The notes under the pieces were generated by a model that ran no database searches, was not told where the DNA came from, and saw nothing but the letters and a program-made list of their open reading frames with translations. From the IMG/VR virus record IMGVR_UViG_2579778573_000005: 44,005 nucleotides of DNA; one strand, written 5' to 3'. A program made the translations under genes and the position numbers. Below are positions 25,399 through 30,680 of this stretch, piece by piece. Position 1 is the stretch's first letter. Each line of letters opens with the position of its first letter. This DNA is from a virus (taxonomy: Duplodnaviria; Heunggongvirae; Uroviricota; Caudoviricetes).

Positions 25399-26004
25399 AT
25401 GCCATCGGATGACGATTTTAACAGCCGTTTCAAACAGGAAGTAGCACGCAGACTGAAGGATTCCCTCAACCTACACCGTCAGTTAGCAGAAGAGGTTGAG
25501 CCGGAGGACGATGAAACTCCGGTTCAGTCTCCTGACGAAGCTTCACCTCAGCCAAAGGTTTCGCACGCCCCCAAAAAAACGGCTGTCCGTATTCGCGGAA
25601 TAGCCAGAAAAAGAGCTGCCGAAGCTCGCAAAATGGCTGTAGCTGCGTCTAGCAAAAGAATTCCAACTGCTACACCCTCTCAACAAGTCACCCGTACTGA
25701 GAGTAAAATCTTGACCGAGTTCACATCTGTGAAACAGGTGAATTCACTTGATACCGAGCATGAGCGCAAACAACTCAACAACAAAGATTTTGAAGCAGAA
25801 ATCGCTCTAAAAAAACGATACGGGAAATGGTTCCTGATTATCCTTGCTTTCCAACTTCTGATAATGAATGGTGTATTTATTGCCGACGGCGCAGGTAAGC
25901 TGGAATTTGAGGATTTAACACTACAGTTGTACATGGGCGGTACTTTGACAGAGGTATTCGGCCTCGTGCTGGTCGTGACAAAATACCTTTTTAAACGCAA
26001 GTAA
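25399..26004 (+). CDS. Membrane-anchored protein, unknown function
   Basis: Track ORF 201 aa; 10 bp after the peptidase gene; charged N-terminal region, two C-terminal hydrophobic helices. Confidence 0.6.
   Translation: MPSDDDFNSRFKQEVARRLKDSLNLHRQLAEEVEPEDDETPVQSPDEASPQPKVSHAPKKTAVRIRGIARKRAAEARKMAVAASSKRIPTATPSQQVTRTESKILTEFTSVKQVNSLDTEHERKQLNNKDFEAEIALKKRYGKWFLIILAFQLLIMNGVFIADGAGKLEFEDLTLQLYMGGTLTEVFGLVLVVTKYLFKRK
25933..26004 (+). repeat. Direct repeat copy A (last 24 codons of the membrane protein gene)
   Basis: 72 bp, ~90% identical to 30609-30680. Confidence 0.8.
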
Positions 26005-26028
26005 CTCTCTCGGTCCAACAGTCTTTCG

Positions 26029-26050
26029 AAGGCCCTGATCAAAGGGCCTT
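26029..26050 (+). terminator. Hairpin after the peptidase/membrane-protein operon
   Basis: AAGGCCCT-GATCAA-AGGGCCTT, 8-bp stem; weak T content downstream. Confidence 0.4.
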
Positions 26051-26249
26051 GATAAATTAGCAGTGCGTTGAAAACAGATAGTTATTCCCATCAGTTCCAA
26101 CGTAATACACATCAAAAAAATCACCATTCTTTTGCTCTAACGTCAACACCTACCCTTAAAAAAATAATTCTCCAAGAATGAGAAAGTTATTGTGTGTATT
26201 AGATAAGATATGAGCTGACACATCTATGGCGTGGAGCCAAATTTAATAT

Positions 26250-26281
26250 GACAGTCCGCTCTGTGCCATAAGCGGACTGTC
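26250..26281. terminator. 10-bp perfect inverted repeat hairpin between convergent genes
   Basis: GACAGTCCGC ... GCGGACTGTC with 12-nt loop. Confidence 0.35.
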
Positions 26282-26466
26282 AATAAACAGATTCACTTGT
26301 AAATCTTGAAGCTATACATATTTACTTTCAATGATAAATAAAAGAACTATCCAAAAATCACTGAGAGCATATTTTAACTAACCCTCCGCTACTATTAACA
26401 TAAATTTCACCCAACCATAATTAAATTGATACATATAGCAACTTACCTTGATACGAATCATCTGGG

Positions 26467-27165
26467 TTATATTTTTCCATATTTTTTTCCGTCAAATCGA
26501 ATCATGCCAGGATCAAGAAAATTAATTAAATCGATTAACGCGTGCTGTATTCTGATTAGCCTTTCTTTATAAATTCCGATATCTCTTGTCATATTTATCA
26601 CTTCATTGTTTAAATCTAAAAAAAATGGCTCATTGATAAAGCAATTTTCCTTTGTGAAACTGCCGTAACCTATGCAATCAAATCCAGTATCTGTTGATAT
26701 CAGCATCTTTTCTGCAATAGCTCTCTGCTCTCCTATGAAAAACATAAAATACTGACCAAAGACGTCTGTTTGGATTAATGAGTTAATATTGTTCTGTAAT
26801 CTAATAAACTCCCTCATTTTTTTATTTTTTTCTAGGCTAAGGTATTGAATGTCTATGCGGGCAGCTTCTGTCCATGCAAAAAACTGGGAAAAAAGAAAAA
26901 CAGTATTGTTGATAACATAATCTTGTTGGCGCTTATTCCCATTATGATAAAACTCTTCAATGAACCCCAATTCTAATATATTATAAATACGGCTTTGTAA
27001 GTCTGAAGCTGAGCGAATTAACGGTTCAATATAGTACTGATGTTTTCTCCTTACATCCAGTGATTCATTGAGCTTGTTTATTCTATTCTGATTATAAGTA
27101 GATATAGCAATAGAGATTATAGCTATTGCACCACTAATAAAGCTTGAAATTAATGCCGTACCCAT
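26467..27165 (-). CDS. AT-rich gene for N-terminally membrane-anchored protein, unknown function (accessory candidate)
   Basis: Track ORF 232 aa; one N-terminal hydrophobic helix; markedly lower GC than flanking phage genes. Confidence 0.55.
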   Translation of the reverse strand: MGTALISSFISGAIAIISIAISTYNQNRINKLNESLDVRRKHQYYIEPLIRSASDLQSRIYNILELGFIEEFYHNGNKRQQDYVINNTVFLFSQFFAWTEAARIDIQYLSLEKNKKMREFIRLQNNINSLIQTDVFGQYFMFFIGEQRAIAEKMLISTDTGFDCIGYGSFTKENCFINEPFFLDLNNEVINMTRDIGIYKERLIRIQHALIDLINFLDPGMIRFDGKKYGKI

Positions 27166-28305
27166 CTAAAAGTCCTTTGATTCTTGCTTGGTTAACAAAA
27201 TGACATAATTTTATTTAATGCCATAACAACTTAACAATATATCATAATATGATTATTATGGTGTAGCTTGTCGCATCTACGCTCCATTACAAACAGATGT
27301 AAGATATAACCTATATGTTTTAGCCAGCAAATTCGAAAGCATTCAAAGTAGTCTCATCGAACTCTCGAAACCCTATGTCTTCGGGTATAAAATATTTAAA
27401 TCCATTTGCATAATATCGACTCATGTTTATTATATTCTCCCCATTCACCATTAAGATTTGACATTATTTTCAACAATCGGTTATTGCAAGATTGAAATAT
27501 ATTTTTACTTGACACAATATTCCATGTAGCCCAGCGATTCGACTTACCCCCAACTATACGGACAATCTAAATTAAATCGATGATTTTTTGATACATTCTC
27601 CTCTCTCCATTACTTTATGTTTTTGTTCCCCAAAAATACCTTGCTCTCTAAAAAATAATTGTTCTTTAAGTTCAAAATCGAGATCTACATGAGCGTTAGA
27701 TACAAAGCTAATATGTTGAAATGTCTTTCCCCCCCCCATAACGGCATTGTTATCTAAACTATGTTACACAAATATAATATTACCCTTTCAACGTAATCCA
27801 AGAATAAGATTAATGCCATTATATATATCATAAATATGATATTTTGTATATTTTTATCATTTAGCCTTGATTGTACTAGGTGTACTCTCAACGAAGTAGG
27901 GAAAGTCTGTTCCTCGCTCACAGCTGCCCTTCAGTAAGCGAAAAAATGCCTACTCGGTGCCATATACAGCCATTGTTATTAACAGCAGGGAATAATTCAA
28001 AACTGAAATTAAATATCTACCTTTTACAGTAGAAATAGTTCCTCCAGGACACTATCCATTGCCGGGCACAATCACTCGGGGTATAACGATATAAAATATG
28101 TTCATGATAGTGCAGGTTCGTATATTAAGTTCAGCAGCGAAAACATGCCTTACAGGTTTCCGGTTTTGGGAGCGTCGTTACAGGATCCTGCGCATACCGT
28201 TCCCATCTGTTGAATTAAAGGTTTCACAGCCTTTGCCGATATCACCTTTTACCTTACCTGTGATGCGTTCAGTGCTGAAGTGGTCAACAAAAACTGGCCA
28301 CCGAG

Positions 28306-29124: not shown

Positions 29125-29150
29125 AGGATAACGCGCCCTGAGTTTCCCGA

Positions 29151-29453
29151 TTATCGAGAACTGTTCAGGGAGTCTGACATCAAGAGCGCGGTAGCCTTTT
29201 TTAATATTTCATTTTCCATTTCAATACGTTGTAGCTTTTTCCTGAGCTCACGGATTTCAATTTGTTCCGGGGTAATAGGGGAGGCTTTTGGTGTTTTTCC
29301 CTGCCGCTCATCACGTAATTGTTTCACCCATCGCGTCATTGTGGAAAGGCCGACATCCATAGCGCTGGCTGCATCTGCCACGGTGTAATTCTGGTCAACG
29401 ACCAGTTGAGCGGATTCGCGTTTAAACTCTGCGCTGAAATTTCTTTTTTTCAT
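29151..29453 (-). CDS. IS911 OrfA
   Basis: Begins [13 protein letters not shown] at ATG 29453 (track ORF extends to a GTG at 29489); leucine-zipper C-terminus. Confidence 0.85.
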
Positions 29454-29606
29454 TATGGCACCTGTGTTGTTCTGAGGTGAGCATATCACCTCTGTTCAGG
29501 TGGCCAAATTCAGTAAACCACTTCATGCTCAGCGTTGTTTACTGTAGCTCTCGGGACTGATTACAGACCGCGTCTTAAAAACCAATCCTTACTCTAAAGG
29601 GAATTC

Positions 29607-30530
29607 ATGAGATTAAAATACTCAGTACTCTTACTCGCCATTGCCCTTACAGGCTGTGATAACAAAAAAGATGAGATCGGTTGTTCTTCGGAAATAACCC
29701 AGTCAGCTCTCATGGATTTATTAAAAAAATCTGCTTATGAAGGACTCTCTGAACAGGTCGATAAATACCCTGATGTCACTAATCAGACCAAACGAAGCAC
29801 ACTGGACAAGATCAAACTAGCCATCTCTGAGATCTCCACAACATCAAGTGACACGGGCAGCACAATGAAAACTTGTGAAGGGACCGTGACGATGACTCTA
29901 TCTGCGAACGAGTACGTCCAGCTTTCAGATGCTTACAGAAAGAATTTTAATCGTAATCTCGATAAGCAAATGGAAAGCCTGTTTTTGGAGAACAACGCAA
30001 ACGCCTTTTCAAAACGTATCACCTACACCGTGCAGGCGACCGACGATCAGAAAAACGTTTTTGTAAAAACCTCTACTGATAATCCGATATCAGTGGGCGC
30101 CGCTTTACTGACATCGCTTTCCATTATCACCCCGATCGTTGAGCAGCAGAAAATCCAGCAGGCTAAGGATGCCCAACAGAGTCAAATTGAAGCGGAACAA
30201 CAGGTGCAACTCAGGGCGCAAGAACAGGCTAAGTATGAGGCGGAGAAGCAAATAGAGAGACAGGCACAACTTCAGCCGCAAAAAGCTGACAACCTTGATC
30301 AGTCCCGAATGGCATTTGCGAATGCCGACTCTGATTTGAGTACCGTCTGGAGCAAGTTAACCCCGGCGAAGAAAAAAGATTTGCTGCCTTCTCAGCGTCA
30401 GTGGATCAAAACTAAGGATGCTATGTGCGGTAAAGTTTCAATGCAGGGAACAGATGCTGAAGTCAAGAAAATGGTCGACTGCCAGACGCAAATGACCCTT
30501 TCAAGAATCGCTTTCCTCAGAAACCAATAA
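29607..30530 (+). CDS. Lipoprotein with DUF1311 (LprI-like) C-terminal domain
   Basis: Track ORF 307 aa; signal peptide with LTGC lipobox; Gln-rich coiled region; C-terminal QRQWIK..DAMCG..VDCQ pattern. Confidence 0.55.
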   Translation: MRLKYSVLLLAIALTGCDNKKDEIGCSSEITQSALMDLLKKSAYEGLSEQVDKYPDVTNQTKRSTLDKIKLAISEISTTSSDTGSTMKTCEGTVTMTLSANEYVQLSDAYRKNFNRNLDKQMESLFLENNANAFSKRITYTVQATDDQKNVFVKTSTDNPISVGAALLTSLSIITPIVEQQKIQQAKDAQQSQIEAEQQVQLRAQEQAKYEAEKQIERQAQLQPQKADNLDQSRMAFANADSDLSTVWSKLTPAKKKDLLPSQRQWIKTKDAMCGKVSMQGTDAEVKKMVDCQTQMTLSRIAFLRNQ

Positions 30531-30543
30531 CTGAAGTCTCCTT

Positions 30544-30579
30544 CAAGCTGGCGCCAGGTGTTAACCTGGTGCCAGCTTA
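30544..30579 (+). terminator. Long hairpin after lipoprotein gene
   Basis: ~15-bp imperfect palindrome centred on GTTAAC; no U-tract. Confidence 0.3.
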
Positions 30580-30608
30580 GTCATCAAGTGCATATGTAAC
30601 TGTTTTAT

Positions 30609-30680
30609 ATGGGCGGTACTTTGACAGAGGTATTCGGTCTCGTGCTGGTCGTGGTCAAATACCTTTTTAAGCGCAAATAG
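30609..30680 (+). repeat. Direct repeat copy B (orphan copy of membrane-protein gene 3' end)
   Basis: Would encode MGGTLTEVFGLVLVVVKYLFKRK; 6 mismatches to copy A. Confidence 0.8.

Follow-up and report, generated by a model that had tools for sequence, protein, structure and literature searches.

The modular theory of lambdoid phage evolution has its older 'linker' or boundary sequences, and integrative elements that insert in the 3′ end of a gene, at attachment (att) sites in tRNA genes or in protein genes, supply a replacement end. Temperate-phage mosaics form via homologous recombination (HR) on short, diverged homology (De Paepe et al, 2014; PMC3945230). Hotspots of anti-phage systems have been described in P2-like prophages and P4-like satellites, and their exchange was suggested to occur via HR in the conserved flanks (Rousset et al, 2022; PMC9122126). 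Here we describe a cargo locus in a DNA stretch of 44,005 nucleotides (IMG/VR record IMGVR_UViG_2579778573_000005; hereafter the window), which is a lambdoid Escherichia coli prophage. The end of a membrane-protein gene is present there twice, as the working 3′ end of the gene (copy A) and, beyond 4.6 kb of further DNA, as an orphan relic (copy B). The relic still recombines with intact gene ends, in both directions and with crossovers inside the repeated unit. A hotspot in which a gene-end relic and a live gene end both serve as substrates for HR is, in our view, probably the explanation of the locus.

The locus resembles the P2 and P4 hotspots (PMC9122126) in its fixed position and its conserved bounding genes, between which similar prophages carry varying defence systems. 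It differs from them in residing in a lambdoid phage, at the Q/nin–replication position, with an ImmA/IrrE peptidase gene plus the membrane-protein gene as one anchor and an ORF6N-domain gene as the other. Furthermore, the relic of an anchor gene's end lies within the locus as a second recombination point, and the window's own cargo is only a candidate for defence. In common with the 'HR traces' of De Paepe et al (2014), the locus has short, diverged homology at an exchange boundary, with crossovers inside it; the identity blocks of 14–29 bp, set in homology of about 90%, fall within what has been reported for relaxed recombination in phages (PMC3945230). Unlike those traces, the homology is a gene end duplicated in one genome, an arrangement that also permits deletion and the stacking of cassettes. 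With integrative elements in gene 3′ ends the locus shares a direct repeat of an intact and a displaced partial gene end around foreign DNA, and an empty site. However, it has no integrase and no fixed crossover core, its interior is mosaic, and the relic travels with its right-hand neighbours even without the gene. Since the use of short diverged homology in mosaicism and the existence of prophage defence hotspots are both already established, we regard the locus as ordinary phage mosaicism, unusually well documented, and not as a new mechanism. What it offers is a clean natural record of the loss, swapping and stacking of accessory and defence genes, with one 81-nt scar found in both recombinant forms.

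The repeated gene end and its natural recombinants

The initial annotation, made from the sequence alone, reported a 72-bp direct repeat (25933-26004 and 30609-30680) with 6 mismatches. The repeat is real, but 65 of the 72 positions match, so that the actual number of mismatches is 7 (unit positions 30, 46, 47, 48, 63, 69 and 72); the one missed earlier is in the stop codon, whose final base differs (TAA versus TAG). A repeat search of the whole window extended the homology about 10 nt further to the left, giving 81 nt at 89% identity (25923-26003 versus 30599-30679) with a spacing of 4676. No other direct repeat in the window comes close in length, the runner-up being 32 nt at 72%, so this one is not due to chance. 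According to alignments, copy A (25923-26003, plus strand) comprises codons 175–201, approximately, of the membrane-protein gene and the first two bases of its stop codon, whereas copy B (30599-30679, plus strand) is a non-functional relic of the last 27 or so codons. As had been noted, copy B appears in the list of open reading frames (ORFs) as an orphan ATG followed by 22 codons, MGGTLTEVFGLVLVVVKYLFKRK. A target-site duplication was considered and rejected, as 81 nt far exceeds the length of such a duplication and positions 26004 and 30599 carry no inverted repeats. The 89-nt unit had no match in a phage GenBank collection.

Recombination between the two copies would leave a single hybrid unit. 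A synthetic empty site, in which 25399-25932 was joined to 30609-31541, was matched in one piece, over 100% of its length and at 100% identity, by just one of 5,426 complete E. coli genomes, that of GPEC172. Outside the repeat, no more than 3 substitutions in 17.4 kb separate its prophage from the window, and the two share their protein accessions. Left of the ATG the junction has the sequence of copy A, and from unit position 30 onwards that of copy B, which places the crossover in a 29-bp block that is identical in the two copies (25933-25961). GPEC172 is best read as an A-left/B-right deletion between the copies, because prophages that are 2–5% diverged already have two copies, and the two-copy layout thus predates the near-identical GPEC172 prophage. 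The gene in GPEC172 (locus L003, 8001-8606) encodes a hybrid membrane protein, WP_134241516.1, with a C-terminus derived from the relic and Val at Thr194.

The opposite, B-left/A-right junction was found in Escherichia whittamii Sa2BVA5. Here, a prophage of the APEC20/16 type runs through the LprI/DUF1311 lipoprotein gene that precedes copy B and into the left part of the relic. This left side of the second repeat copy has the LprI hairpin flank and lacks 1 bp; it also shows the signature GTTGTGACT, as does the relic of the APEC/E24377A type. The right side consists of an A-type end followed by segment 'a' (the conserved stretch downstream of copy A; see below), PDC-M25, a TnpB relic and ORF6N; over 3.8 kb it is 95% identical to GF131. 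The switch between the two took place inside the 14-bp block AAATACCTTTTTAA (unit positions 49–62), and the prophage consequently bears two stacked sets of cargo. In an alignment with the two parental types, the hybrid units from GPEC172 and E. whittamii have the form by which 'HR traces' are recognised.

Sorted by their flanks, the units found in 54 loci fell into several classes. Written as left flank/right flank, these were gene/a and LprI/ORF6N, the two canonical classes; gene/other, which corresponds to fillings of the GIY-YIG type; one gene/ORF6N, the deletion recombinant; one LprI/a, the stacking recombinant; and three other/a, which are orphan units of the type found in LCP30S3_I5.

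It could be argued that the repeat is simply an old internal duplication with passive copies, and that the recombinant-looking genomes are ancestral or coincidental. The duplication is indeed old, since both copies and the LprI block are common to diverged prophages, and just one deletion derivative turned up in some 450 carrier genomes. The initial annotation had held that two copies with identical intervening content in related prophages would point to this explanation. Relatives that are 2–5% diverged (APEC20/16, RM10042 and E. whittamii) do retain both copies together with LprI, but their middle differs. Moreover, GPEC172 is near-identical to a two-copy prophage on both flanks, and in the E. 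whittamii hybrid unit two otherwise distinct types of prophage meet exactly within the 81 nt, as predicted by recombination between the copies. We therefore consider passive copies quite unlikely.

Several points nevertheless weigh against the explanation favoured here. GPEC172 and E. whittamii are one genome each, and the latter is a draft contig, so that an assembly error is conceivable, although the hybrid unit sequences in both recombinants argue against such an error. An ancestral empty site would look like GPEC172, and only the near-identity of the flanks suggests otherwise. The membrane-protein gene directly precedes ORF6N in this deletion derivative, an adjacency that the initial annotation had proposed to look for in related prophages, but it was not found as a native arrangement: E. 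coli genomes, IMG/VR, GTDB species representatives and metagenomes yielded no diverged phage with a native full-length gene abutting ORF6N. Finally, the early genes scanned in the window prophage include no recognisable RecT, Redβ or Erf recombinase.

A variable cargo slot offset from the repeat

The content of the bracketed 4.6 kb was borne out as first described: an AT-rich gene for a 232-aa protein, about 1.1 kb with only short ORFs, an insertion sequence (IS) and the LprI/DUF1311 lipoprotein gene. It is not one element, however, but three independently distributed modules and a private IS.

The first module, segment 'a' (26005-26276, plus strand), contains a hairpin (26029-26050) and accompanies copy A into several differing cargo contexts. 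Its homology stops at 26276/26277 in GF131, L012, L016 and copy 2 of E. whittamii, and at 26026 in APEC20/16 and RM10042. The second, segment 'b' (26240-27935, minus strand), is an AT-rich module (GC near 0.30–0.35 in the AT-rich stretch) that fills the variable slot in the window prophage and, among the prophages compared, is specific to this type. A genomic island of strain TUM11352 (locus L017, 6001-7696), unrelated and not part of a prophage, holds the same 1.7 kb at 99.6% identity, which indicates that the module moves independently of the prophage. The TUM11352 copy adjoins GTPase, dynamin-family and patatin-like genes and copies of IS100. A strong, terminator-like hairpin with a 13-bp stem, on the minus strand, lies at the a/b junction (26249-26282).

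The third module, segment 'c' (27945-30598, plus strand), carries the LprI/DUF1311 lipoprotein gene (29607-30530, plus strand; Pfam LprI, 4.1e-7) and is interrupted in the window by the IS. Homology to it begins at 27945-27953 in E24377A, APEC20/16, RM10042, L007 and E. whittamii, and at 27918 in LCP30S3_I5. Segment 'c', copy B and ORF6N form a conserved block in diverged prophages, including that of E24377A, which is without the peptidase–membrane-protein pair. A second strong hairpin, with a 15-bp stem (30545-30578), separates the stop codon of LprI from copy B, which begins 20 nt further on.

The IS (28277-29525, minus strand) is of the IS3 family and ISEc52/IS911-like. Its presence had been recognised correctly but its name had not: what was called IS911 is given in RefSeq as 'IS3-like element ISEc52 family'. 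It is flanked by a 3-bp target duplication, TGC (28274-28276 and 29526-29528); relatives are unbroken across the insertion site (28276 joined to 29522), and the window's IS junction occurs in none of the 5,426 genomes. Because it has its own target duplication and a junction absent from the genome collection, the IS is a late insertion private to the window genome, the most recent event at the locus and unrelated to the repeat. The same type of IS occurs at other positions in other strains, for example inside LprI.

Comparison with relatives showed that the part that varies runs from about 26027/26277 to 27945, starting some 22–272 bp to the right of copy A. The variable slot thus covers less than the interval between the repeats and is displaced relative to it. 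Between the same anchors there were six or more different fillings, with flanks 90–100% identical among the prophages. APEC20/16, RM10042 and E. whittamii have hypothetical genes and a GIY-YIG nuclease, with breakpoints at window positions 26026 and 27953; GF131 has PDC-M25A/B and a TnpB relic; the IMG/VR locus L012 has membrane proteins and PD-T4-3, joined at window position 30409 inside the 3′ end of LprI; L016 has a SMEK-domain protein and others; and LCP30S3_I5 has an NsnA/GmrSD-like gene and an IS3. Matches to defence models in these other slots were to PDC-M25A (3e-157), PDC-M25B (5e-96), PD-T4-3 (2e-137) and NsnA/GmrSD_N (5e-41), and the SMEK-domain protein counts among them. Conserved anchors combined with variable fillings that include such matches identify the locus as a prophage hotspot for defence and accessory genes. 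In the window's own cargo the only defence match is a weak one to RTasTM (PADLOC, 1.8e-5), from the 232-aa protein encoded in segment 'b'.

Earlier replacements seem to have left their mark on the right side of the slot, with 3′-end fragments layered against ORF6N by successive exchanges of cargo. In GF131 (locus L004, 7458-7643 and 7628-8422) there is a C-terminal fragment of TnpB (Cas12f1-like TNB), and the 3′ end of ORF6N has been replaced, with the junction at window position 30764. In L012 (6321-6600) the LprI gene is reduced to its last 120 nt or so (from window position 30409), ahead of copy B.

These distributions bear on a further suggestion of the initial annotation, namely that an element had inserted into the 3′ end of the gene and carried a replacement end. 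On this account the 4.6 kb would be a present or former site-specific integrative element, with copy A as the replacement end at attL and copy B as the displaced end at attR. The geometry is suggestive: there is no homology on the left, then a 29-bp identical block and a diverged remainder up to the stop codon, and no homology thereafter. A precise empty site exists in GPEC172, and elsewhere the same gene pair lies 24–34 bp from a convergent integrase gene. However, neither the segment nor seven alternative fillings contains an integrase or other recombinase (ORF lists and Pfam, PADLOC, NCBIfam and PHROG scans); the sole transposase is of the IS3 family and belongs to the IS with its own target duplication. 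The segment is not present or absent as a whole, since a, b and c are distributed separately, and LprI and copy B are found in E24377A without copy A. Nor is there a fixed core, the crossovers having occurred at unit positions 1–29 in GPEC172 but at 49–62 in E. whittamii.

The conservation of the gene end is likewise that of a protein. The 201-aa product of the gene (25399-26004, plus strand) is a two-helix membrane protein that matches phrog_5346 at 5e-141 and has no Pfam family; 48 homologues were found. In an alignment of 18 sequences its last 30 or so residues (LTLQLYMGGTLTEVFGLVLVVTKYLFKRK) are nearly invariant across Enterobacteriaceae, whereas the N-terminal half is variable. Distant gene ends are only 73% identical as DNA (66 of 90 nt), differing mainly at third codon positions while the protein is near-invariant, and this points to constraint on the protein and not on a DNA attachment site. 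Given the lack of an integrase, the mosaic interior, the separate origin of the IS and this protein-level constraint, an integrative element is very unlikely to account for the locus.

The ImmA/IrrE–membrane-protein pair recurs next to an integrase gene in prophages of Klebsiella, E. coli and other genera; in K. oxytoca and in other E. coli prophages this integrase gene is convergent and the pair is located at the end of the prophage. This arrangement had raised the idea of an attachment site, which was dismissed on the third-position differences and the differing crossover points. The membrane protein, with its near-invariant C-terminal helix, has further homologues in Enterobacter, Salmonella, Cronobacter and Serratia.

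Copy B as a relic and the proposed history of the locus

Copy B lies 20 nt past the LprI hairpin, and on its other side the convergent ORF6N gene reaches its stop codon 24 bp away. In E24377A, APEC20/16, RM10042 and E. whittamii the relic has lost 1 bp and is hence frameshifted, the orphan unit of the LCP30S3_I5 type carries an in-frame stop, and copy B of the window has Val at the otherwise invariant Thr194. Because of these changes we conclude that copy B is a dead, non-coding relic, not kept as coding sequence. The opposite case, that copy B is itself functional and under selection as a gene for a 23-residue hydrophobic peptide, as an RNA or as a regulatory site, could appeal to the intact ATG-to-stop ORF in the window and to the retention of copy B beside ORF6N in many lineages. 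The frameshifts and the in-frame stop of the relatives contradict it; in addition, no ribosome-binding-like motif was seen upstream of the ATG on reading the sequence, and copy B has no Rfam match. We regard a function of this kind as extremely improbable. An Rfam scan of 24000-31000 gave only a chance match of miRNA level and no known RNA element.

All relics start at residue 174–177 of the protein (tblastn), which is consistent with a single founding truncation. Independent truncations at one site were considered and are probably not the answer; the orphan of the LCP30S3_I5 type has about 10 nt of relic-specific upstream flank. Judging from its sequence, this orphan most likely shares that origin: a B-left/A-right crossover in the relic would have come first, and a further replacement on the left side after it.

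We propose the following history, the order of events being an inference. An allele of the membrane-protein gene would once have ended beside ORF6N, and LprI-bearing DNA would have joined in, severing the last 27 or so codons in what was presumably a single old event. The resulting LprI–relic–ORF6N block would then have passed as a unit among related prophages; inheritance and exchange of this block as a unit is directly observed. Meanwhile, the slot between the segment downstream of the gene and the LprI promoter region would have been refilled with varied cargo, often anti-phage defence systems, and such refilling is again seen in the relatives. The relic, at 89–93% identity to the live gene end, remains with it a substrate for HR. 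Intragenomic recombination between the two would remove everything in between, as appears to have happened once, in GPEC172. Recombination with the intact gene end of another phage would bring the cargo downstream of that end in behind the relic, thereby stacking cassettes, as shown by E. whittamii and probably also by the LCP30S3_I5 type. Catalysis would presumably be by host RecA or a phage recombinase.

The alternative offered in the initial annotation, in which cargo is exchanged through recombination at the conserved end of a gene, thus holds in substance, because the gene end is conserved, the slot is variable and natural recombinants exist in both directions; the two copies do not, however, form the edges of one exchangeable cargo. 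A further step would be to suppose that the relic is retained as a docking handle, at which incoming phages add defence cassettes by one crossover so that these accumulate in tandem. We think this unlikely, but if true it would amount to a recombinase-free, integron-like accumulation of cargo in lambdoid prophages, with E. whittamii as the first two-cassette example.

Prophage setting, neighbouring genes and CRISPR matches

The cargo locus lies between the Q/nin side and the replication genes of the prophage. The gene order is late genes, Q, DUF1364/DUF1367, the cargo region, ORF6N, small genes, a DnaB-type helicase, YdaT/HTH regulators, an exonuclease-family gene and the integrase. At least 80% of 24800-31700 is present in 403 of the 5,426 complete E. 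coli genomes, and most of these 403 lack the IS. Roughly 8% of complete E. coli genomes carry this prophage, and several carrier strains are labelled O25b:H4-ST131.

The first gene of the two-gene left anchor encodes an ImmA/IrrE (Peptidase_M78, capP-like) metallopeptidase (24901-25389, plus strand; Pfam PF06114, 7.7e-18; PADLOC capP, 2.4e-25) and is directly upstream of the membrane-protein gene at every homologous locus examined. The right anchor is the ORF6N-domain, anti-repressor-like gene (30705-31541, minus strand; Pfam ORF6N, 1e-21; phrog_4792, anti-repressor). The cargo slot between the ImmA/IrrE–membrane-protein pair and LprI/ORF6N can be mined for defence systems.

Within segment 'b', the 232-aa gene (26467-27165, minus strand; phrog_5606) belongs to a widespread family that some sources name 'lysogenic protein', and we flag it as a candidate defence gene. 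The 770 bp or so upstream of it (27166-27935, minus strand) hold short same-strand ORFs (27320-27451, 27396-27515, 27572-27739 and 27754-27921), a run that may be what remains of a decayed partner gene, or else a long leader. Pfam and NCBIfam have no family for the 201-aa and 232-aa proteins, nor for a 77-aa protein encoded further upstream.

The locus is also matched by spacers of Type I-E CRISPR arrays. A spacer of E. coli 23CRST031 exactly matches 25955-25986, inside copy A, and has 4 differences from copy B; one of E. coli STEC367 exactly matches 31336-31367 in the ORF6N gene, and 2020S05-013-18 and 23CRST004 share the same 33-bp match to the ORF6N site. Each matched site is followed in the window by CTT, that is, an AAG protospacer-adjacent motif on the spacer strand. 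The exact matches indicate that this phage family has been a CRISPR target in E. coli.

Finally, a second pair of mosaic breakpoints delimits 24125-24639, a stretch with the 77-aa gene (24269-24502; phrog_5550), which is swapped for unrelated sequence in GF131, APEC20/16, RM10042, L011 and E. whittamii.

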